Below are positions 3,855 to 58,243 of a stretch of 64,000 bases of DNA, in pieces; within the stretch, counting starts at the first letter, position 1, and each line of letters opens with the position of its first letter. Source of the stretch: Alphaproteobacteria bacterium UBA6178 (GTDB lineage Bacteria; Pseudomonadota; Alphaproteobacteria; Rickettsiales; UBA3002). The stretch is from positions 19,221 through 83,220 of the forward strand of contig DITS01000001.1 of assembly GCA_002422205.1 (NCBI GenBank), given 5' to 3'. The notes beneath the pieces are model-generated. The model was not told the DNA's origin. It saw only the letters and a list, made by a program, of their open reading frames with translations, and did no database searches. The position numbers were made by a program, and so were the translations under genes.

Positions 3855-3865
3855 ATAAATTTTTT

Positions 3866-4012
3866 GTCATACTGCGGGACGCGCAGCGTCAGCGCAGACT
3901 CTCACGCCGCCTCCTGAGATCCTGCGCTCTCGCGTTGCGAGCCGCAGGATGACAATTACTAAGAGAGGCTTCCTTCGCTCACCCTCACCGTCATTCCCGC
4001 GCAAGCGGGAAC
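3866..4012. repeat. intergenic repeat block: 88-bp element B (3866-3953) plus GTCAT hairpin H1 (3990-4012)
   Basis: B has the ends GTCATACTGCGG...CCGCAGGATGAC and is near-identical to 28052-28139. H1 is GTCATTCCCGCGCAAGCGGGAAC. The block lies between the convergent tyrC and HAD gene ends. Confidence 0.85.
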
Positions 4013-5553: not shown

Positions 5554-6518
5554 GCCGCCCTCTTTTTTGTTTCGTTGGCCTGCGCGATATACCAGTGGAC
5601 CGTTTGTTCCAGCCCCTCATCCATTCGCTGCGGCGGACTCCAACCTAATAGTTGATGTGCCTTCGAAGTGTCAATGCGTAACGAGCGGCAGACGCTATCA
5701 TACAATCGCTCTTTGCCAACACAGACTGCAATACGGCTTAGCCAGCGAATCGGAATATAGAGCAGTTTTGTCGGTTTATGCATGTGTTTTGCAAGCTTTT
5801 TAACCAGATGCGGTGTCGAAACCGCCTCGCCATCGGCTACCAAAAACGTCTCATTCGCCGCCTGCGGATGGCTCAGGCAGCAGTCAATCAAATCGCATAA
5901 ATTGGTGACGGAGACAAAATCACGCTTGTTCTTCACACGGCCAAATGGCAAATATCGGCATTTATATACATTATGCATCAGCCGGTAAAAATTGGCCTTC
6001 ACCCCCGGCCCATAGACCAGCGGCGGGCGAATAATCACCACCTCCAGACCGGTGTCGGTTGCAATCTTGCGCAAGCGGTTTTCCGCCTGCCATTTCGAGC
6101 TGCTATAGGCATTAGACGGGTTCGGATCAGCCGCCTCGGTAAAGGGCTCGTCACTGTAATTGCCCAGCACGCCGATGGTGCTTAAAAACACCAGCCGTTT
6201 CACTCCGGCCTTAATAGCTTCATGCGCTAAATGCGTCGTGGCCTCAACATTGATGGTACGAAATTCACGATCAGGATCGGCGACTTTTTCATGCAACACA
6301 TGCACACGCGCTGCCGTATGCACCACCGCATCCACCCCTTGTAGCGCTTCGCTCCAATCGGTGTTTCCGTCTAGCTCGCCCACGCAAAAATCGCCTGCGG
6401 TGTCAGACTGACGCACAGCGTGCACCACCTCATGCCCGTGCTGCTGCAACATGCTGCACAGATTCGAGCCGACAAAACCATTAGCGCCTGTTACCAGAAT
6501 TTTCATATCCAGCGCCAT
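5550..6518 (-). CDS. NAD-dependent sugar epimerase/dehydratase (SDR family)
   Basis: 322 aa. KILVTGANGFVGSNL Rossmann fold and a YSSSK catalytic motif. Confidence 0.8.
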   Translation of the reverse strand: MALDMKILVTGANGFVGSNLCSMLQQHGHEVVHAVRQSDTAGDFCVGELDGNTDWSEALQGVDAVVHTAARVHVLHEKVADPDREFRTINVEATTHLAHEAIKAGVKRLVFLSTIGVLGNYSDEPFTEAADPNPSNAYSSSKWQAENRLRKIATDTGLEVVIIRPPLVYGPGVKANFYRLMHNVYKCRYLPFGRVKNKRDFVSVTNLCDLIDCCLSHPQAANETFLVADGEAVSTPHLVKKLAKHMHKPTKLLYIPIRWLSRIAVCVGKERLYDSVCRSLRIDTSKAHQLLGWSPPQRMDEGLEQTVHWYIAQANETKKRAA

Positions 6519-14946: not shown

Positions 14947-15681
14947 GTGTTCGTCGATAAGTATCTGGTTACTCCTTTATATGCCGCTGGCAGCTTATTT
15001 ATACTTTGGTTTGGTAGCTATCTTGGGCTGCTGTCTATCTATCGCTTTATCGCAACATCAGGCCTATCGGTGGCGATTGCGGGTCTGGCGTTGCTCTTAG
15101 CCTTATGGTTCATGCGCCATCTAATATCATGGATAGCTGCGCTTTATGGATTGGCCATTATCGGCTGTTGCGTGCTGCTAATGATACCGCTGGATTATTT
15201 CTGGGATGGAGAATGGGACAGCGCTGCTTTTCATCTACCCGCCATTTTAGCTTTAATGGATGGATGGAACCCGACAGAAGAAGCACGGGATATCATCTGG
15301 CTGAACACCTATCCCAACGGCTGGTGGACGTTATCAGCAACTGCTGCCACGCTGCTGGGTCATCTGGGCTTGAGCGCCGAAAGCGCACGCATCATGAATT
15401 ACCTGTTGCCTCTCATCACGCTGGGACTTGCGTTAGGGTTCGCAGACATTGCTATCAATATCCCAAGCAACGTGATTGATGAAGAAGTTGCGGGGCATAC
15501 TGATGGCATAGAAATCTCTGCTAAGATTGACTTACCTCATGTGTTAGGATGGCAGCTATCCGGCAGTGCTTTTATAAGCAGCGAGAATCTTCATACCATT
15601 ATGAGAAACTGTATAAGTCGCCCTCTCAGTGCGGTGGATATATTATCCAACTTAGAATCCAACCTCAGCGACAACGACTAA
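14947..15681 (+). CDS. hypothetical polytopic membrane protein with an acidic soluble C-terminus (possibly a gene fragment)
   Basis: 244 aa with a GTG start and no clear SD. About 5 hydrophobic helices in the first 170 aa, then a D/E/S-rich tail. Confidence 0.4.
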   Translation: MFVDKYLVTPLYAAGSLFILWFGSYLGLLSIYRFIATSGLSVAIAGLALLLALWFMRHLISWIAALYGLAIIGCCVLLMIPLDYFWDGEWDSAAFHLPAILALMDGWNPTEEARDIIWLNTYPNGWWTLSATAATLLGHLGLSAESARIMNYLLPLITLGLALGFADIAINIPSNVIDEEVAGHTDGIEISAKIDLPHVLGWQLSGSAFISSENLHTIMRNCISRPLSAVDILSNLESNLSDND

Positions 15682-27951: not shown

Positions 27952-28188
27952 AGTTTTTGCGTTTGCTCCTGCTCTGGGCTACTGCCCTCCGCAATGAGCC
28001 TAATGCTTCGCGACTAAAGGCTCGGACTCCTGTCCTCGTTCTCTATTATTCGTCATGCTGCGGGACGCGGAGCGTCAGCGCAGTATCTTCTGCCACCTCA
28101 TGAGATCCTGCGCTCTTGCTGCGCAAGCCGCAGGATGACAAAATTATGGAAGGCTGTCACCCCGTCGCATGACGGGGTCCGGCCTTCC
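27952..28188. repeat. intergenic repeat block: element A (27952-28040), element B (28052-28139), H2 with outer stem (28148-28188)
   Basis: A is ...TTTGCTCCTGCTCTGGGCTACTGCCCTCCGCAATGAGCCTAATGCTTCGCGACTAAAGGCTCGGACTCCTGTCCTCGTT. B is GTCATGCTGCGG...CCGCAGGATGAC. H2 is GGAAGGC-TGTCACCCCGTCGCATGACGGGGTCC-GGCCTTCC. Confidence 0.85.
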
Positions 28189-31151: not shown

Positions 31152-31255
31152 GTCACCCCGTCGCATGACGGGGTCTGGGCTGAAGTAATGCCGGATACCG
31201 TCATAAAGACGGCATGACAATTCTTCACTGAACTCTGAACTCTGGACTCTGAACT
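31152..31255. repeat. intergenic repeat block: H2 (31152-31175), H3-like (31188-31218), four CTGRACT heptads (31228-31255)
   Basis: GTCACCCCGTCGCATGACGGGGTC; ATGCCGGATACCGTCATAAAGACGGCATGAC; CTGAACT CTGAACT CTGGACT CTGAACT, ending 1 nt from the ftsK stop codon. Confidence 0.85.
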
Positions 31256-33867: not shown

Positions 33868-34384
33868 TAGTTTGTGTCTGCTCCTGCTACGGCCTACTGG
33901 CCTCCGCAATGAGCCTAACGCCTTCGGCAACTGAAGGCTCGAACTACTGTCCTCGTTCTTTACTTCTCTTCCTTTCTTCCTTTTTAATCTTGTCATTCCC
34001 GCGACAGCGGCAATCCAATCTGACTTGGTTCAAGTGGATCCCCGGGATCGGCGATGCCGCCCCGAGGATGACGGTATCCGTAAGCTTGTCACCCCGTCGC
34101 ATGACGGGGTCTGGCCTTGCTTCTGCCAGCCCCACTTTGTTTGCGTTCGCCCTCGCTTTGCACTACTATGCTACGCGAGGAACCTAAGCGCTTCGCGCAC
34201 TACAGACTCGGCCTGCTGACCTCGCTATCCCATTTGTCATGCTGGCGCTCAATGCCAGCATCTCATCCCACGCGCCGGATACTGGCGTCAAGCGCCAGTA
34301 TGACGCCCTCCTCTCCCCTTGCCGCCTGCCTTCATTCCGCCACGCCTGCATTTTTACTGAACTCTGGACTCTGAATTCTGGACT
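33868..34384. repeat. 517-bp solid mosaic of repeats between ffs and dnaX
   Basis: Modules are A (33868-33957), H1 (33992-34014), H8 (34032-34072), H2 (34088-34111), a diverged A copy (34136-34226), an H4 pair (34236-34261 GTCATGCTGGCG...; 34279-34304 ...CGCCAGTATGAC), and heptads CTGAACT CTGGACT CTGAATT CTGGACT (34357-34384). Confidence 0.85.
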
Positions 34385-36415: not shown

Positions 36416-36522
36416 GGGTTGAGAGGCTAGAGGCTAGAGACTAGGGATCACTTTATCTCTTTATCTTCCCTTACCCCTAACCTCTAGCCTCTAGCCTCTA
36501 ACCTCTAGCCCCTAACCCCTAG
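36414..36522. repeat. inverted heptad arrays between ybaB and recR
   Basis: The left arm is GAGGCTA GAGGCTA GAGACTA (36423-36443). The right arm has seven heptads, CCCCTAA CCTCTAG CCTCTAG CCTCTAA CCTCTAG CCCCTAA CCCCTAG (36474-36522). The arms are mutually complementary. The ybaB stop lies at the left edge and the recR ATG is 7 nt after the right arm. Confidence 0.85.
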
Positions 36523-37133: not shown

Positions 37134-37213
37134 GTCATGCCGTGTTTATCACGGCATCCGGCCTTAAGACCAGACCCCGTCATGCTGAACCTAAAACCTG
37201 TAACCTAACACCT
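37134..37213. repeat. intergenic repeat block: H3 (37134-37157), half H2 (37171-37185), AACCT-type heptads (37187-37213)
   Basis: GTCATGCCGTG-tttat-CACGGCAT; CAGACCCCGTCATGC; AAAACCT GTAACCT AACACCT. Confidence 0.8.
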
Positions 37214-42450: not shown

Positions 42451-43473
42451 ATGACAATGACAACCGACCAGGCATCCCGTTTGCAGCCGATTCAGATCGG
42501 CCCGATTACCATCAACGATCCGGTGTTTTTAGCACCGATGACCGGCGTATCCGATTTGCCATTTCGCAAATTGGTGAAGCGCTATGGCGCTGGGCTGGTG
42601 GTGTCGGAAATGATTGCAAGCAAAGCGGTGATTTTAGAGACCAAAAATATCGCCCGTATGAGTGCTTTCGAAGAAGTTGAGCGCCCCTTTGCGATTCAGC
42701 TGGCAGGGTGTGAGCCCGCCGTGATGGCCGAAGCCGCCAAGCTGAATGAGGATCGCGGTGCGGATATTATTGATATTAATTTTGGCTGTCCGGTGAAAAA
42801 AGTCGTCAATGGCATGGCAGGCTCCGCCCTGCTGCGCCATGAAAAACTCGCCGGTGAAATTTTGGAAGCCACCGCCAAAGCGGTGAGCATTCCGGTCACG
42901 CTGAAAATGCGCATGGGCTGGGATCACGCCTCGCTGAATGCGCCCAAAATTGCCAGAATCGCCGAAGAAGTCGGCATTAAAATGATCACCATTCATGGCC
43001 GCACCCGTTGCCAAATGTATAAAGGCTCCGCCGACTGGGCCTTTGTGCGCAGCGTCAAAGAGGCTGTCAATCTGCCCGTCATCGTCAATGGCGATATCAC
43101 CAGCTTCGAGGATGTCGATCATGCGCTGGCGCAATCGGGTGCCGACGGCATTATGATCGGGCGCGGTAGCTATGGACGTCCGTGGTTTCCCAATCAGGTC
43201 ATTCAATATTTGCGCGGGCAATCTGCCGCCGCGCCATCACTCATCGAACAGCTCGCCATCATCGATGAGCATTATGATGAAATGCTGCATTTATATGGTC
43301 ATGAAAATGGTGTGCGCGTGGCGCGCAAGCATCTGGGCTGGTATTCGACGGGGCTCACTGGCTCCGCCGAATTTCGACGCGACATGAACACACTGACCAA
43401 TGCGATGGAGGTGAAGGAGCAGCTGAAGCGGTTCTACCATAGCTGCATCGAACGCGAGCACGCGCTGCAATAG
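42451..43473 (+). CDS. dusB: tRNA-dihydrouridine synthase B (NifR3)
   Basis: 340 aa. [14 protein letters not shown]...[11 protein letters not shown]...HGRTR. Confidence 0.92.
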
Positions 43474-43475
43474 CC

Positions 43476-44237
43476 ATGAGCGAGCCCAAACTCACTGCCG
43501 CCAAAGCCGATCTTACCGCCAGTCACGGCACGCATGATATCAGCCGCTCCGCCGCCATCATGGCCGCCATGCTGGCGCATGAGGTGAAAAATCCGCTCTC
43601 AGGTATTCGCGGTGCGGCACAGCTGCTCAGGCAACGCGCCAGCGAAGACGACAAACCATTAGCCGATCTGATTTGCCGCGAGGTTGACCGCATTAATACG
43701 CTGATCAATAAAATCGAGTTTTTCTCCAACGAGCCCGTCGCCTGCGCCGAGTCGGTGAATATCCATGAGGTGTTGCAATATGTGCGCGAGGTGGCGCATT
43801 CCACCTTTGCCGCGCATGTGACTATTCAAAGCCGGTATGACCCGTCACTGCCCGATGTACGCGGCGACCGCGAATTGCTGGTGCAGCTGTTTATTAATCT
43901 GGTCAAAAACGCTGCCGAAGCGCTAGAAGGGCGCGATGATGGCGTCATCACCCTCAAAACCGGCTATCAGATCAATCATAAATTTCGCATTGCAGGCCGC
44001 GAGCCTTTTATTTCCCTGCCCATTGCCATCACCATCGAGGATAATGGCGGCGGTATCGCACCCGATCTGCAATCCTCGATTTTTGATCCCTTCGTTACCT
44101 CCAAAGCGCAAGGCAACGGCCTCGGCCTCGCCATCTGCGCCAAAATCGTCGGCGACCATGGCGGCACCATCGCACTCGATACCAGCTTGGCGGGGCATAC
44201 AAGGTTTCATATTTTGTTGGGAGTGGCAAAGAATTAG
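43476..44237 (+). CDS. ntrB: nitrogen-regulation sensor histidine kinase NtrB, short form lacking an N-terminal sensor (PAS) domain
   Basis: 253 aa. The H-box (LAHEVKNPLSGIRGAAQLL) begins at residue ~33. N, G1 and G2 boxes are present. The start is 2 nt after the dusB stop. Confidence 0.85.
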   Translation: MSEPKLTAAKADLTASHGTHDISRSAAIMAAMLAHEVKNPLSGIRGAAQLLRQRASEDDKPLADLICREVDRINTLINKIEFFSNEPVACAESVNIHEVLQYVREVAHSTFAAHVTIQSRYDPSLPDVRGDRELLVQLFINLVKNAAEALEGRDDGVITLKTGYQINHKFRIAGREPFISLPIAITIEDNGGGIAPDLQSSIFDPFVTSKAQGNGLGLAICAKIVGDHGGTIALDTSLAGHTRFHILLGVAKN

Positions 44238-44395
44238 GGGCTAGAGGCTGGGGGCTGGGGGCTGGGGGTTGGGGGCTAGCCCTTCCCTCGTCATTCCCGC
44301 GACAGCGGAAATGACAACAAAAAAGGAAGGCCAGACCCCGTCATGCGACGGGGTGACAAATATCTATACTGCCCTAGCCTCTAGCCTCTAGCCCC
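44237..44395. repeat. composite element: heptad array, H1, H2, inverted heptad array
   Basis: GGGGCTA GAGGCTG GGGGCTG GGGGCTG GGGGTTG GGGGCTA (44237-44278); GTCATTCCCGCGACAGCGGAAATGAC (44290-44315); GACCCCGTCATGCGACGGGGTGAC (44334-44357); TAGCCTC TAGCCTC TAGCCCC (44375-44395, the reverse complement of the left array units). Confidence 0.85.
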
Positions 44396-44477
44396 TCCCC
44401 TCTTCGCACTTGCAATAATCCCGCGCCTGCACTAGCCTGCCTAAAAAATAGGCAACCCATAGCCGACAGGAACCCTC

Positions 44478-45974
44478 ATGAGCAAGCTAACCATTCTACT
44501 CTGCGACGATGATGAAGCGATTTGCACCGTATTATCGCAGGCACTCACCCGCGAAGGCTATCAGGTTGAAACCACCGATCATTTGCCCACCCTGCTGGGC
44601 TGGGTCGAAGATGGCAAAGGCGATGTGGTGATTACCGATGTGATCACCCCCTCCGGTAACGGGCTGGAAATGCTCCCGCAGCTCAAAGCCGTACGCCCCG
44701 ATTTACCGATTATCGTTATCAGTGCGCAAAACACGCTGATGACGGCGGTGAAAGCCAATGAGCTGGGCGCCTTTGATTATCTGCCCAAACCCTTTGATCT
44801 GGGCGATATTTTGCATTGTGTGGATAAGTCCGTTGCTACTAAAAAGCTATTTACCGACGATGTCGATTTGCCGCTGGCGAATTTGCCCGATGATGTGTCG
44901 CTCATCGGTGCCTCCTCTGCCATGCAGGATATTTATAAAGTCATGGCGCGTATGGTCACCAATGATCTCACCGTGATGATCGAAGGCGAGTCCGGCACCG
45001 GCAAGGAATTGGTCGCCCGCGCCCTGCATAAGCTGGGAAAACGCAAATATAAGCCCTTTATTGCCGTGAACATGGCTGCTATTCCCAAAGATTTGGTCGA
45101 AAGCGAGCTTTTTGGCCATGAAAAAGGCGCTTTTACCGGCGCAGCGGGCAAAAAAATCGGTAAATTTGCCCAAGCAGAGGGCGGCACGCTGTTTTTAGAC
45201 GAAATCGGCGATATGCCGCTTGATGCACAGACCAAATTATTGCGCGTCCTGCAGCAGGGCGAATTCACGCCGATTGGCAGCAACCAGCCGGTTAAAAGTA
45301 ATGTGCGTATAGTTTGCGCAACCCATCGCGACCTCACCGACATGATTGCCACCGGTCATTTCCGCGAAGACCTTTATTACCGCCTTAATGTGGTGCCGCT
45401 GCGCGTGCCGCCTTTGCGCGAGCGTGCCGAGGATATCGCCAGCCTTGCCCTGCATTTTCTGGTCAAAGCGCATGATCGCGGCCTGCCGCATAAGCAGCTC
45501 GATGATGCAGCATTGCAGGCCCTATCGCAGCATCGCTGGCCGGGCAATGTGCGCGAGCTGGAAAATCTGATGTATCGCCTCGCCGCTTTGTGCAGCGAAA
45601 GCATCATCGGCGACGATGTGGTACGCGCCGAGCTACGCACGCATGAGCGCACCCAGCCCGTAGCGGCTGATCGCGTAGTCAGCTTTTTACGCAATACCAA
45701 CCCCACCGCTGGCGATGGGGTGCAATCGCAACTGGCGCAGCATTTACGCAGCTATTTTTCTGCCCATCAACACAGCCTGCCGCCGGATGGATTGTATGAT
45801 CGTATTTTGCAGTTGATCGAAAAGCCGCTGATCGAAGAAACATTGCGCGCCACCAATGGTAATCAGTTGCGCGCGGCCAAAGTGCTGGGCATCAACCGCA
45901 ACACGTTACGCAAAAAAATGCAGCAGCTCGAATTGCAAGAGCATAAGCGCTACGCATTGCGCCATGTGTCGTAG
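44478..45974 (+). CDS. ntrC: sigma-54-dependent response regulator NtrC
   Basis: 498 aa. Receiver domain, AAA+ domain (GESGTGKE, GAFTGA, ESELFGHEKGAFTGA) and a C-terminal Fis-type HTH. Confidence 0.9.
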   Translation: MSKLTILLCDDDEAICTVLSQALTREGYQVETTDHLPTLLGWVEDGKGDVVITDVITPSGNGLEMLPQLKAVRPDLPIIVISAQNTLMTAVKANELGAFDYLPKPFDLGDILHCVDKSVATKKLFTDDVDLPLANLPDDVSLIGASSAMQDIYKVMARMVTNDLTVMIEGESGTGKELVARALHKLGKRKYKPFIAVNMAAIPKDLVESELFGHEKGAFTGAAGKKIGKFAQAEGGTLFLDEIGDMPLDAQTKLLRVLQQGEFTPIGSNQPVKSNVRIVCATHRDLTDMIATGHFREDLYYRLNVVPLRVPPLRERAEDIASLALHFLVKAHDRGLPHKQLDDAALQALSQHRWPGNVRELENLMYRLAALCSESIIGDDVVRAELRTHERTQPVAADRVVSFLRNTNPTAGDGVQSQLAQHLRSYFSAHQHSLPPDGLYDRILQLIEKPLIEETLRATNGNQLRAAKVLGINRNTLRKKMQQLELQEHKRYALRHVS

Positions 45975-45995: not shown

Positions 45996-46074
45996 GTCAT
46001 GCTGCGCGCGGTGAAACCGCAGGATGACAACTAAAACCTGTAACCTAAAACCTGTAACCTAAAACCTGTAACCT
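45996..46074. repeat. short B-type hairpin (45996-46028) plus three tandem 14-mers AAAACCTGTAACCT (46033-46074)
   Basis: GTCATGCTGCG-cgcggtgaaa-CCGCAGGATGAC. The 14-mer array ends 2 nt before the ntrY ATG. Confidence 0.85.
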
Positions 46075-46076
46075 GT

Positions 46077-48392: not shown

Positions 48393-49793
48393 ATGAGCCT
48401 TGACATCCTCGTGATTGACGACGAATCAGATATTACCTCCCTTATTTCTGACATTCTCACTGACGAGCATTATCATGTTCGCGTAGCCAACAATAGCGAC
48501 AGCGCCCTCAAAGCATTAGCCGAGCGTGTGCCTGCCGCCGTGATTCTCGATATCTGGCTGCAAGGCAGCGAGCTCGATGGCTTAGGCATTTTAGAGCGCA
48601 CGCAAAAGAAATATCCGCATGTGCCCGTCATCATGATTTCCGGTCATGGCAATATCGAAACCGCCGTCACCGCCATTAAAATGGGCGCGTATGACTTCAT
48701 CGAAAAGCCTTTCAGCGCCGAGCGGCTGCTGTTGATTCTGGGCCGCGCACTGGAAAATGCCAAGCTCAAGCTGGAAAATACCGAGTTGCGCCTGCGTGGC
48801 AAACCCGAAACCGAGCTGATCGGCTCCTCTGCCGCTGCTTCACATCTGCGCCAGACCGTCGAAAAAGTGGCACCCACCAACAGCCGCATTCTGCTCACCG
48901 GCGGGCCCGGCACCGGCAAGGAAGTGGTGGCACGGTTGATTCATCAAAAATCGCATCGCCGCAATGGCAAGTTTGTTGTGCTCAATGCCGCGAGTATTTC
49001 GCCTTCACGCGTTGAAACCGAATTATTCGGAGTCGAAGATAATAACCCCAATGGTGGCGCTGAAAAGCTTGGCATGCTTGAGCGTGCGCATGGCGGCACC
49101 CTCTTCATCGATGAGGTCGCCGATATGCATCTGGAAACGCAAAGCCGCTTTTTGCGCGCCTTGCAGGGTCAGTCCTTCACGCGTGTGCATGGTAATAAGC
49201 CGGTGACGGTCGATGTGCGTATCATCGCCGCAAGCAACCGCGATTTGCAGGCCGAAATCGATGCCGGTCGTTTCCGCGAAGATCTCTATTATCGCCTCAA
49301 TGTCGTGCCGATCAAACTGCCCAGCCTGCGTGAGCGCCGCGAAGATATTCCCGAGCTGTGCCGTTATTTTATCCGCCGCGCAGCCGAAGTTTCGGGTATG
49401 CCTAACCGCCATTTGAATGACGATGCGATTGCGGTGCTGCAATCCTATGTGTGGCCGGGCAATATCCGCCATTTGCGCAACATCATGGAATGGCTGCTTA
49501 TCATGGCACCCGGCAACAGCGTCGACCCCATCAAGGCTGATCATTTGCCGCCGGAATTATTCGAGTCCAACCGTGCGATTATGTCACCCGAAATCAACAG
49601 TGATATCATGTCGATGCCGTTGCGTGATGCGCGTGAAACATTTGAAAAACAATACTTAAATGCGCAAATCAATCGCTTTGGCGGGAATATTTCCAAAACC
49701 TCGAATTTCGTCGGAATGGAGCGTTCCGCTTTACATCGTAAGCTGAAAATGCTTGGTATCCATAATGACGAGAAAGAGAAAACAGCTGCGTAA
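48393..49793 (+). CDS. ntrX: sigma-54-interaction-domain response regulator NtrX
   Basis: 466 aa. Receiver, AAA+ (GGPGTGKE) and HTH domains. The GAFTGA loop is replaced (FGVEDNNPNGGA), as expected for NtrX. Confidence 0.85.
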   Translation: MSLDILVIDDESDITSLISDILTDEHYHVRVANNSDSALKALAERVPAAVILDIWLQGSELDGLGILERTQKKYPHVPVIMISGHGNIETAVTAIKMGAYDFIEKPFSAERLLLILGRALENAKLKLENTELRLRGKPETELIGSSAAASHLRQTVEKVAPTNSRILLTGGPGTGKEVVARLIHQKSHRRNGKFVVLNAASISPSRVETELFGVEDNNPNGGAEKLGMLERAHGGTLFIDEVADMHLETQSRFLRALQGQSFTRVHGNKPVTVDVRIIAASNRDLQAEIDAGRFREDLYYRLNVVPIKLPSLRERREDIPELCRYFIRRAAEVSGMPNRHLNDDAIAVLQSYVWPGNIRHLRNIMEWLLIMAPGNSVDPIKADHLPPELFESNRAIMSPEINSDIMSMPLRDARETFEKQYLNAQINRFGGNISKTSNFVGMERSALHRKLKMLGIHNDEKEKTAA

Positions 49794-49844
49794 TTCGTAA
49801 TTCACAGTTCGATTATCGAATGACGAATGACGAATCACGAGCTA
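49789..49844. repeat. eight tandem heptads between ntrX and trkA
   Basis: CGTAATT CGTAATT CACAGTT CGATTAT CGAATGA CGAATGA CGAATCA CGAGCTA. The ntrX stop TAA (49791-49793) lies in the first unit. The left and right halves are imperfectly complementary. Confidence 0.8.
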
Positions 49845-53611: not shown

Positions 53612-53843
53612 TTTTGTGTTTGCTCCTGCTGCGGGCTACTGCCCTCCGCCAGCGCCTGACGCTTACGCGACTAAAGGCTCGGTCTACTGACCTCGGTTTT
53701 ATGTCTTGTCATTCCCGCGAAAGCGGGAATCGAGCCCTACCTCTTCACTGGATACCCGCTTTCGCGAGTATGACAATCAAAAAGTAAAAATATTCCGCAT
53801 CACCAATACGGGCAACCCTTCACTGAACTCTGTACTCTGAACT
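53612..53843. repeat. intergenic repeat block: A (53612-53698), H1 (53708-53730), H1 variant (53751-53774), heptads CTGAACT CTGTACT CTGAACT (53823-53843)
   Basis: GTCATTCCCGCGAAAGCGGGAAT; GATACCCGCTTTCGCGAGTATGAC. The A copy is in the same orientation as the other A copies. Confidence 0.85.
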
Positions 53844-53860: not shown

Positions 53861-54595
53861 CTAGTATGCACCCGCAGTGCGCAACGCGTGGGTAATGGTG
53901 GCATTGCCGCGAGCATCCACGCCTTGCGGGCTTACGCCCTTGGCCAGCAGGTAGCGCAGCGTGTCCGGCGCACCGTGACGCGCCGCCACCATCGCCAGCG
54001 ATTCGCCCTGCGCGTTGGACATAAACAAATTCCGTCCCGACTGAATCAGCGCGCGCAAGCCATTCAGGTTATTGGTTGCGGCAGCATGAAAGGTCAGCGC
54101 GTCATAATCCGATTCCCACTGCGCCACGGGCAAATGGCGGTTTTCGCGGCTATACTGCTTATTGTATATCTCGTTGGGCAGATATTGTTTGCGGTAATTA
54201 AATTTGCGCTGAAATTTCGGGCGTTGCACCACAGGCCGCACCACGGGTTTTTCCTCTTCCGGTGCCACGCCCACATCGGCCAGCGGCACATCGCTTGGTT
54301 GCCCATCGCGGATTTGTTTGCCGGATTGGAAAAAATCAAAGGCATCATCATCTGCAGGTAGTGGCAAGGTGGCCGCGCTTTGCGGTGCATCAGCGGGCGC
54401 TTGCGCCGGTGCCAGCGGGTCAAGGCTAGCCGGGGGCGTCGGAGACAGCGGGTTAAACGGATCGCCAGCAGGGAGCGGCGGCAAGGCAGGCAAGCTGGGC
54501 AGATCGGGCAAGGCAGGCATTGCATCTTGCGCGAGTGCTGCGCTCAGCGGCAAGCAACAGGCCAGCAGGGCAATGAATATATGTGAACAGGTCAT
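53861..54595 (-). CDS. secreted ankyrin-repeat protein with Pro/Ala-rich linker
   Basis: 244 aa. Signal peptide MTCSHIFIALLACCLPLSAALA|QDA, a P/A/L-rich region, and C-terminal ANK-like repeats (NGLRALIQSGRNLFMSNAQGESLAMVAARHGAPDTLRYLLAKGVSPQGVDARGNATITHAL). Confidence 0.75.
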   Translation of the reverse strand: MTCSHIFIALLACCLPLSAALAQDAMPALPDLPSLPALPPLPAGDPFNPLSPTPPASLDPLAPAQAPADAPQSAATLPLPADDDAFDFFQSGKQIRDGQPSDVPLADVGVAPEEEKPVVRPVVQRPKFQRKFNYRKQYLPNEIYNKQYSRENRHLPVAQWESDYDALTFHAAATNNLNGLRALIQSGRNLFMSNAQGESLAMVAARHGAPDTLRYLLAKGVSPQGVDARGNATITHALRTAGAY

Positions 54596-57865: not shown

Positions 57866-57939
57866 GGCCCGATGGCAGAGTGGTGATGCAGCGGTTTGCA
57901 AAACCGTGAACGTCGGTTCAATTCCGGCTCGGGCCTCCA
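57866..57939 (+). tRNA. tRNA-Cys (anticodon GCA)
   Basis: GGCCCGATGGCAGAGTGGTGATGCAGCGGTTTGCAAAACCGTGAACGTCGGTTCAATTCCGGCTCGGGCCTCCA. The cloverleaf folds and CCA is encoded. ORF 57748..58011 on the opposite strand is spurious. Confidence 0.93.
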
Positions 57940-58046: not shown

Positions 58047-58196
58047 ATTGCCTCCGCGGCTCGCCTCCTGCTCGCCCGTTAGGCGCCGCTCAAGGCTGAT
58101 GCGGTTTACTAACCGCATGTTCCATTGCCTCCGCGGCTCGCCTCCTGCTCGCCCGTTAGGCGCCGCTCAAGGCTGATGCGGTTTACTAACCGCATG
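58047..58196. repeat. perfect tandem duplication of a 73-bp unit (period 77)
   Basis: ATTGCCTCCGCGGCTCGCCTCCTGCTCGCCCGTTAGGCGCCGCTCAAGGCTGATGCGGTTTACTAACCGCATG occurs at 58047-58119 and 58124-58196. Each unit ends in an ATGCGGTT-tact-AACCGCAT hairpin. Confidence 0.9.
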
Positions 58197-58220: not shown

Positions 58221-58243
58221 GTCATTTCCGCGAAAGCGGGAAT
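58221..58243. repeat. GTCAT hairpin H1
   Basis: GTCATTTCCGCGAAAGCGGGAAT, 22 nt 3' of the 58266..59114 gene stop codon. Confidence 0.85.

Follow-up and report, generated by a model that had tools for sequence, protein, structure and literature searches.

What is the segment of about 170 bp that separates ntrB from ntrC in the uncultured alphaproteobacterium UBA6178 (contig DITS01000001.1; the whole 64,000-nucleotide stretch analysed is referred to below as the window)? It combines inverted arrays of heptanucleotides (heptads) with two hairpins (H1 and H2), and could be a single element, such as a transposon or a regulatory RNA, or an assemblage of separate repeats. We favour the latter, and assign a probability of about 0.65 to the segment being a nested mosaic made up of three small repeats that recur independently (i.e., a frame of inverted heptad arrays in which copies of the H1 and H2 repeats are nested) and not one element. 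Its parts are as follows.

44235-44237, + strand: TAG stop codon of ntrB (from the open reading frame (ORF) call), with which the first heptad (TAGGGGC) also opens
44236-44260, + strand: 5′ strand of a closing stem that spans 25 bp (I2, an inverted repeat with 88% complementarity), paired in the minimum free energy (MFE) folds of both RNA and DNA
44237-44278, + strand: G-arm of six purine-rich heptads (GGGGCTA GAGGCTG GGGGCTG GGGGCTG GGGGTTG GGGGCTA)
44276-44289, + strand: partial C-arm CTAGCCCTTCCCTC, a direct repeat (D3) of 44388-44399 with 92% identity
44290-44315, + strand: H1, one member of a dispersed family of palindromic repeats (GTCATTCCCGCG-N4-CGCGGGAAT)
44325-44359, - strand: H2, a reverse-oriented copy of a dispersed repeat of ~33 nt, TTGTCACCCCGTCGCATGACGGGGTCTGGCCTT(CC)
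44372-44396, + strand: 3′ strand of the 25-bp closing stem, followed by CCCCTCTTCGCAC (no U-tract)
44374-44402, + strand: C-arm (CTAGCCT CTAGCCT CTAGCCC CTCCCCT)
44410-44457, + strand: ancestral block TTGCAA-N17-TAGCCT plus the palindrome TGCCTAAAAAATAGGCA, outside the repeats and conserved in relatives

The arms, hairpins and hexamers listed in the initial annotation were all found where it had placed them, and the arrays were confirmed by Tandem Repeats Finder (TRF; 5.9 copies at 44237-44277 and 2.9 copies at 44374-44393) and by a repeat finder. Two extents need adjusting, however: the C-arm had been given as 44375-44395 but runs on to about 44402, and the G-arm, whose heptads are correct, had been taken as an element of the spacer, but its first heptad begins with the ntrB stop codon.

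The two arms are unequal (six vs. three to four units), differ in their unit variants and lack fixed termini. A palindrome (GGGCTAGCCC, 44273-44282) joins the G-arm to the partial C-arm, and because this partial C-arm repeats the sequence at 44388-44399, the H1/H2 cargo appears to sit within the C-arm rather than in the loop. The H1 arms (GTCATTCCCGC/GCGGAAATGAC) are 11 nt long and 91% complementary here, and the H2 hairpin (ACCCCGTC/GACGGGGT, 44335-44354) has 8 perfect pairs. A pairing between the hexamers CCTTCC (44281-44286) and GGAAGG (44325-44330) had been proposed to enclose H1; this did not hold, as GGAAGG is part of the tail (..GGTCTGGCCTTCC) that copies of the H2 repeat conserve, and the MFE fold omits the pairing.

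In silico, the 176-nt segment folded as RNA at -102.7 kcal/mol vs. -68.3 +/- 4.6 kcal/mol for shuffled sequences (z of -7.5), and as DNA with a z of -5.25. The MFE structure is multi-branched, with the heptad stem closing it and H1 and H2 as branches, in agreement with the earlier suggestion that the 160 bp could fold as one long, multi-branch structure. The three mismatches between 44236-44260 and 44372-44396 are all G.T, and would therefore pair as G.U in the sense RNA. In the window, a degenerate double-heptad pattern had 4 matches vs. 0.09 expected, and 5 period-7 runs were counted vs. none of periods 5, 6, 8 or 9; the heptad arrangement is far beyond what chance would give. When unit order was permuted in 49 paired elements, pairing was not weakened (mean z of -0.05, with 28 of 49 below zero), so that arm complementarity is not maintained per unit. 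Their pairing comes solely from the fact that each arm is an array of the same heptad family, and unit-by-unit matching, whether through selection for pairing or through hairpin-templated copying, found no support.

The cargo has a distribution of its own, as both H1 and H2 recur in the window without heptad arms. The 23-nt core of H2 is identical at five positions (28157, 31153, 34089 and 40011 on the + strand, and 44334 on the - strand); in addition, 26257 holds a variant and 37170-37185 half a copy. A Logan contig from a different sample ends precisely at the H2 edge, as is usual for assemblies at repeats. The H1 family occurs six times (44290, 3990, 33992, 53708, 53752 on the - strand, and 58221), and a hairpin nearly identical to H1 is present in a locus (L076) of a Sideroxydans metagenome-assembled genome. 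In the ntrB-ntrC spacer, the two are single units of different families that share a GTCA/TGAC foot. More generally, of the 30 perfect hairpins whose stem reaches 8 bp or more, 20 fall within intergenic sequence, which makes up 10.6% of the window as listed, and two further ones lie beyond the last gene (after 63846); by our own count a GTC/GAC foot accompanies 16 of 22 non-coding perfect hairpins vs. 0 of 8 in coding sequence.

Conversely, arms are also found without cargo. The ybaB-recR spacer (36416-36522) carries the same arm family with no internal hairpins (fold z of -6.3), as the initial annotation had noticed, and its proposal that arms and cargo are separable is borne out by H1 and H2 copies lacking arms and by arms lacking cargo, both in this spacer and in metagenomes (see below). 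Together with a third, small pair in the ntrX-trkA spacer (fold of -22.6 kcal/mol; two period-7 arrays by TRF), the window thus holds three inverted heptad pairs.

36416-36444, + strand: G-arm of the second hairpin (GGGTTGA GAGGCTA GAGGCTA GAGACTA G), directly after the ybaB stop codon
36468-36522, + strand: C-arm of the second hairpin (CCCTTAC CCCTAAC CTCTAGC ...), ending 7 nt before the recR ATG
49789-49842, + strand: third, small inverted pair (CGTAATT x2 / CGAATGA x3), starting from the ntrX stop codon

Heptad arrays were located at 31228, 34357, 36422/36477, 37190, 44237/44374, 46031, 49817 and 53823, all in spacers, and represent the families CTGAACT (31228, 34357 and 53823), CTAAAAC/CTGTAAC (37190 and 46031), CGAATGA (49817) and CTAGCCT. 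They are heptad simple sequence repeats (SSRs) in that their 7-nt units stand head to tail above chance, lie between genes and belong to several families in one genome. After the stop codons of ntrB, ybaB, ftsK, rmuC and a gene at 53861, which are all such cases in the window, the array shows its purine-rich orientation on the coding strand, and the pyrimidine-rich orientation is found ahead of the start codons of recR, ntrY and dnaX.

The gene order around the segment is dusB (42451-43473), ntrB (43476-44237, an NtrB-type histidine kinase), ntrC (44478-45974), ntrY, ntrX and trkA. Among 185,579 species genomes, which include neither the source genome nor close relatives, the best match to NtrC was 58% identical; five related loci were reached via NtrC homologues, four of which were informative.

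L083/L084 (NtrC 89%): spacer of 95 bp, without heptads, H1 or H2
L214 (NtrC 67%): spacer holding an extra small ORF, without heptads, H1 or H2
L087 (NtrC 67%): spacer of 182 bp, without arrays, with hairpins, including one that is H2-like, downstream of the block it has in common with the window
L215 (NtrC 65%): spacer of 55 bp, without heptads, H1 or H2, and none in its ybaB-recR spacer either
L085/L086 (NtrC 69%): not informative, because ntrB is missing upstream of ntrC

Upstream of a conserved block, none of the four informative relatives has heptads, H1 or H2. The block itself, TTGCA(A)-N17-TAG(C/T)nT plus the palindrome TGCCTAAAAAATAGGCA, is common to the window (44410-44457) and to L083 (8008-8046), L214 (3981-4028), L087 (9834-9873) and L215 (9949-9994), and is probably the ntrC promoter with an operator, even though a sigma-70 and terminator consensus scan of 43800-44800 called no promoter, and no terminator at the element. 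On the other side, NtrB continues after FHILL as GVAKN* in the window, PAI* in L083 and PSA* in L087, and this divergence of its tail places the left boundary of the novel DNA at ~44220, with the stop codon supplied by the array. By parsimony over the four relatives, a block of ~170 bp would have been gained recently in the lineage of the window.

Inverted heptad arrays are not limited to this genome. At positions 1-155 of L087, (AGGATTT)4 ... (CCCTAAN)8 surround two different hairpins immediately 3′ of a stop codon, and a locus of Chelativorans xinjiangense (L025) has (GTGAGTA)7 ... (TACTCAC)4 in its ntrX-trkA spacer (15218-15360). A scan of JGI metagenomes for (CTAGCCT)~3 returned at least 120 contigs with a GC content of 0.39 to 0.69, and the figures that follow hold among the matches listed, which comprise 129 arrays. 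With pairing defined as an inverted G-arm within 400 nt of the C-array, 36 pairs had the G-arm on the 5′ side of the C-arm and 5 had it on the 3′ side, a polarity that does not depend on the strand read. Loops ranged from 10 to 208 nt and exceeded 50 nt in only 12 of the 36, so that cargo-bearing forms are a minority; most pairs are plain hairpins with loops of 10-40 nt straight after stop codons. In 20 of 32 pairs, no more than 15 nt separated the start of the G-arm from the stop of a same-strand ORF with 100 or more codons (median of 6.5 nt), and unpaired arrays follow the same rule on the opposite strand (31 of 69). A T-rich tract was present 3′ of 12 of 34 paired vs. 4 of 75 unpaired arrays, meaning that about a third of the pairs resemble intrinsic, sometimes bidirectional, terminators. 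Gene identity confirms stop adjacency for ntrB, ybaB and ntrX in the window, AsnRS (asparaginyl-tRNA synthetase) in locus L161, YbaB in L104 and NtrX in L025 only. As the AsnRS of L161 is 92% identical to that of Blastocatellia/Pyrinomonadaceae, this carrier is an acidobacteriote, which puts the same heptad hairpin in two phyla or more. Inverted heptad hairpins form a class, with a polarity and a preference for stop-adjacent positions.

On these grounds, we propose that the frame of the segment is a purine-rich heptad array beginning at the ntrB stop and an inverted, pyrimidine-rich array of the same family, which could pair over 25 bp. Such arrays would originate and vary in length via replication slippage, and their CTAG-containing unit would provide stop codons, such that both arms are tolerated beside coding sequence. 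In RNA, the hairpin could act as a 3′-end or insulating structure, i.e., as a terminator-like, transcript-stabilising or RNase III-sensitive stem. H1 and H2, two palindromic units that resemble repetitive extragenic palindromic (REP) sequences and are dispersed through the spacers of this genome, would have become nested within the C-arm, probably by insertion, as suggested by their independent distribution. The whole block would have been acquired in this lineage upstream of an intact ntrC promoter/operator-like block; since that block is intact, ntrC expression is probably not reliant on read-through, and the retention of its own promoter by ntrC would explain why the insertion was tolerated. 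The most likely reading is thus that the segment is filler that the genome tolerates, and that any effect on the transcript is modest.

Several observations weigh against this account. The nearest relative is only 89% identical in NtrC, so that a loss of the block in the relatives is conceivable. The window sequence forms part of a 554-kb metagenome contig (ENA ERZ27315062, k141_870551) and is also present in Logan assembly SRR5323107 and JGI sample 3300001605, and where these samples cover the arrays, their lengths are identical, with no length polymorphism; ongoing slippage was therefore not observed. Likewise, the C-arm sequence is the same in an independent assembly (L082), and that of the ybaB-recR C-arm (36468-36522) in two other samples. 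There is thus no sign of hypervariability, although the samples may share one clonal population, making this a weak test. Within the species, no allele with an empty site turned up, which leaves the insertions as presumed events, and among the 20 ORFs of the 64-kb window scanned against Pfam, none is a transposase or RAYT-like gene (RAYT, REP-associated tyrosine transposase). The window copy has no U-tract 3′ of its stem (flank CCCCTCTTCGCAC) and no terminator was called there, hence a role as terminator, and any 3′-end or insulating action, would be weak for this copy. Finally, the stop-adjacency figures are inflated, because open frames in GC-rich DNA tend to run on until they meet a TAG-rich array.

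A broader reading, which we regard as tentative and would not bet on, is that heptad hairpins are a distinct cross-phylum class of self-expanding stem-loops on stop codons, with a purine-rich (GAGGCTA)n arm 5′ and a pyrimidine-rich (TAGCCTC)n arm 3′, which would serve as expandable terminators or insulators and as sites where REP-like micro-elements preferentially land; in that case, the segment between ntrB and ntrC would be a member loaded with cargo. If so, for an alphaproteobacterium and Acidobacteriota to have the same heptad, it would need to have spread horizontally or to be under a strong constraint common to both. If heptad hairpins are functional 3′-end structures that grow by slippage and attract small palindromic repeats, they would connect simple sequence repeats, REP-like elements and terminators, three phenomena mostly considered apart, and their simple signature would allow them to be detected in metagenomes. 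It is this class, more than the ntrB-ntrC spacer, that is of wider interest.

Among the alternatives, a dedicated cis-regulatory or small RNA, selected for control of ntrB/ntrC as an attenuator, processing site or riboregulator, is unlikely. Its strong predicted structure on the sense strand, with arm mismatches that are all G.U-compatible, and its location between two genes of one regulatory operon are what such an RNA would lead one to expect. Nevertheless, folding of the antisense strand is almost as strong (-95 kcal/mol), the arms show no covariation at the level of units, and the spacer has no match in Rfam 15 at gathering or permissive thresholds, the best sub-threshold matches being mir-H1 (25.8 vs. 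97 bits) and Atu_C10 (23.3 vs. 60 bits). Moreover, the segment is missing from all four relatives with the same gene order, and each of its parts is a generic repeat that also occurs beside unrelated genes.

Equally unlikely is a purely local accident, in which slippage and chance palindromes met in one spacer and no class exists. The initial annotation had reasoned that related spacers without arrays, together with a lack of other paired inverted arrays in the genome, would point to local slippage; the relatives do lack the arrays, and heptanucleotide slippage is common in prokaryotes (PMC4679880), but other paired arrays exist both here and elsewhere, which argues against both one-off local slippage and one mobile element. 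Three inverted pairs within the window alone, the same architecture in L087 and Chelativorans, the multi-copy nature of H1 and H2, and, among the matches listed, the 36 vs. 5 polarity and adjacency to stop codons all contradict such an accident.

The initial annotation had also suggested a single unit resembling a miniature inverted-repeat transposable element (MITE), i.e., a non-autonomous element with heptad arrays as terminal inverted repeats and H1 and H2 as cargo, which we consider improbable. A second copy of the arm-H1-H2-arm arrangement was not found in the 64-kb window, and the arm flanks (left AGAATTAG; right CCTCTTCGC, CCTCTTCGCAC) show no target-site duplication, the sole direct repeat, D3, being internal. 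Inverted arms do bracket an interior segment, arms of this family enclose another interior at 36416-36522, and the block is missing from relatives as a mobile insertion would be; the arms, however, are made of six vs. three to four units of different variants, whose order was unmirrored in 49 elements, H1 and H2 are each found alone elsewhere in the window, and most metagenome relatives among the matches listed are simple hairpins with 10-40-nt loops directly 3′ of stops. Annotating this pile-up of generic repeats as a regulatory RNA or a transposon is therefore unwarranted.

A contingency (phase-variable) locus or G-quadruplex (G4) switch, in which heptad number or a G4 in the G-arm toggles ntrBC, is very improbable: the sense strand of the G-arm is a canonical motif (G5-CT-G5-CT-G5-TT-G5, 44237-44278), enabling G4 energies in ViennaRNA lowered the MFE by 19 kcal/mol (from -102.7 to -121.8 kcal/mol, with a quadruplex predicted inside the outer stem, in what is a rough energy model), and gene-adjacent tandem repeats are a classic phase-variation substrate (PMC4679880), but array lengths are the same in three independent samples where covered and, because the arrays lie between a stop codon and a separate promoter-like block, a change in their length would shift neither reading frame nor promoter spacing.

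As for known systems, heptanucleotide repeats termed short tandemly repeated repetitive (STRR) sequences were reportedly described in cyanobacteria by Mazel in 1990. The arrays of the window are like these and like the TAACTGA repeats in being tandem, exclusively intergenic 7-nt units of several unrelated families per genome with period 7 dominant, in abutting start and stop codons, and in the presence of the same heptad in distant phyla with no evident mechanism of transfer. They are unlike them in heptad sequence and in their host, an uncultured alphaproteobacterium, and unlike TAACTGA in forming inverted pairs and long hairpins whose polarity is fixed (G-arm 5′). The TAACTGA repeats, which are found in Beggiatoaceae, Cyanobacteria and Bacteroidetes and thus span phyla, also adjoin the starts of genes, with 169 direct sets and one indirect set (MacGregor; PMC4679880). 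As summarised in the same source, heptanucleotides are reportedly the most abundant long SSR class in most prokaryotic genomes, for which slippage has been proposed as the cause (Mrazek 2007, via PMC4679880), and in Geobacter metallireducens, families of four or five tandem heptanucleotides have been annotated as putative regulatory sites (PMC2700814). String searches of the literature for the heptad arrays returned no papers, and no description of the inverted-array arrangement was found in the searchable literature.

The nesting of small hairpin repeats in heptamer arrays is reminiscent of Nostoc, where Elhai et al. are said to have reported in 2008 that the small dispersed repeats (SDRs) SDR4-6, hairpin-forming and 20-35 nt long, lie in heptamer arrays and in one another, and that SDRs are present or absent between close relatives; the repeats of the window have no sequence similarity to these and come from a different phylum. 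REPs have a conserved GTAG foot beside their hairpin, and the Rhizobium intergenic mosaic elements (RIMEs) are likewise mosaics. H1, H2 and the other GTCA-foot hairpins recall the former by the position of their foot, although this reads GTCA(T) instead of GTAG. Like REPs, REPINs (REP doublets that fold into hairpins) and bacterial interspersed mosaic elements (BIMEs) of Enterobacteria and Pseudomonas (PMC3116915), they are short, extragenic, multi-copy imperfect palindromes that form mosaics in spacers; unlike REPs and BIMEs, they come with no RAYT seen in 64 kb and with heptad arms that have no BIME counterpart. The segment shares with MITEs such as Correia elements and enterobacterial repetitive intergenic consensus (ERIC) sequences its small size, non-coding and intergenic nature, inverted ends and foldability, but not target-site duplications, conserved full-length copies or defined termini, its ends being arrays of variable length. 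As in Rho-independent terminators, a GC-rich hairpin stands right after a stop, with a T-tract in a third of the paired metagenome relatives among the matches listed; the window copy, however, lacks this tract, and its 25-bp stem enclosing about 110 nt is far larger.

A number of further observations concern arrays elsewhere. The window resembles the Chelativorans locus L025 in also having a small inverted heptad pair in its ntrX-trkA spacer, and GTGAGTA arrays also adjoin a CTAGCCT array in a metagenome locus (L091). About 11 CTAGCCT units occupy the ybaB-recR spacer of L104 (~930-1050 of JACCDO012353489.1), whose source is unrelated (DnaX and YbaB being 42% and 51% identical to those of the window), which may be coincidence or may reflect a favoured site. 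Long perfect heptad arrays occur in the ntrC loci of other Proteobacteria, at 5836-5898 and 11563-11603 of L062 (Alcanivorax sp. IL2), 11283-11366 of L054 and 21073-21135 of L080, namely TAGAAGC x9 immediately ahead of a start codon, ACTGTTT x6, CCTCAAG x12 and GCGGTCA x9, and period 7 was the commonest of periods 5 to 11 in a 1.5-Mb sample of ntrC loci. Stop codons in all frames were considered as a reason for heptad selection (47 of 67 units vs. 38.5 expected, P = 0.006), but the enrichment vanished without the ascertained CTAGCCT family (32 of 46 vs. 28.9, P = 0.16), leaving the idea unsupported.

Regarding the genes of the window, its NtrB is a short protein of 253 aa that has HisKA and HATPase domains but no PAS, as are those of L083, L214 and L215, and the NtrB of L087 has 371 aa and a PAS domain. 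The array (CTAAAACCTGTAAC)x3 at 46031-46076 (100% identical) abuts the annotated ATG of ntrY (46077) with no Shine-Dalgarno sequence in between, and the recR start (36530) likewise has its C-arm upstream without a Shine-Dalgarno sequence; both parallel the pattern of TAACTGA before starts (PMC4679880).

Finally, the window holds other repeats. An inverted doublet of ~95 nt (GTCATRCTGCGGGACGCG..AGCGCAG ... CCTGCGCTCT..GCCGCAGGATGAC) occurs twice, at 3862-3955 and 28070-28160, and is REPIN-like. A third dispersed family of ~90 nt is found at 27962-28048, 33876-33964 and 53616-53702, at the ends of genes or RNAs and, in one case, directly 3′ of the signal recognition particle (SRP) RNA; its copies are ~75-80% identical, its consensus folds into three hairpins, with compensatory changes keeping 2 of 20 pairs, and it could represent a small RNA or a further mobile module. 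Downstream of a tRNA (57866-57936), a 77-bp unit is perfectly duplicated in tandem at 58047-58196 (1.9 copies, 100% identical), each unit terminating in the hairpin ATGCGGTTTACTAACCGCAT, and an H1-type hairpin follows at 58221.

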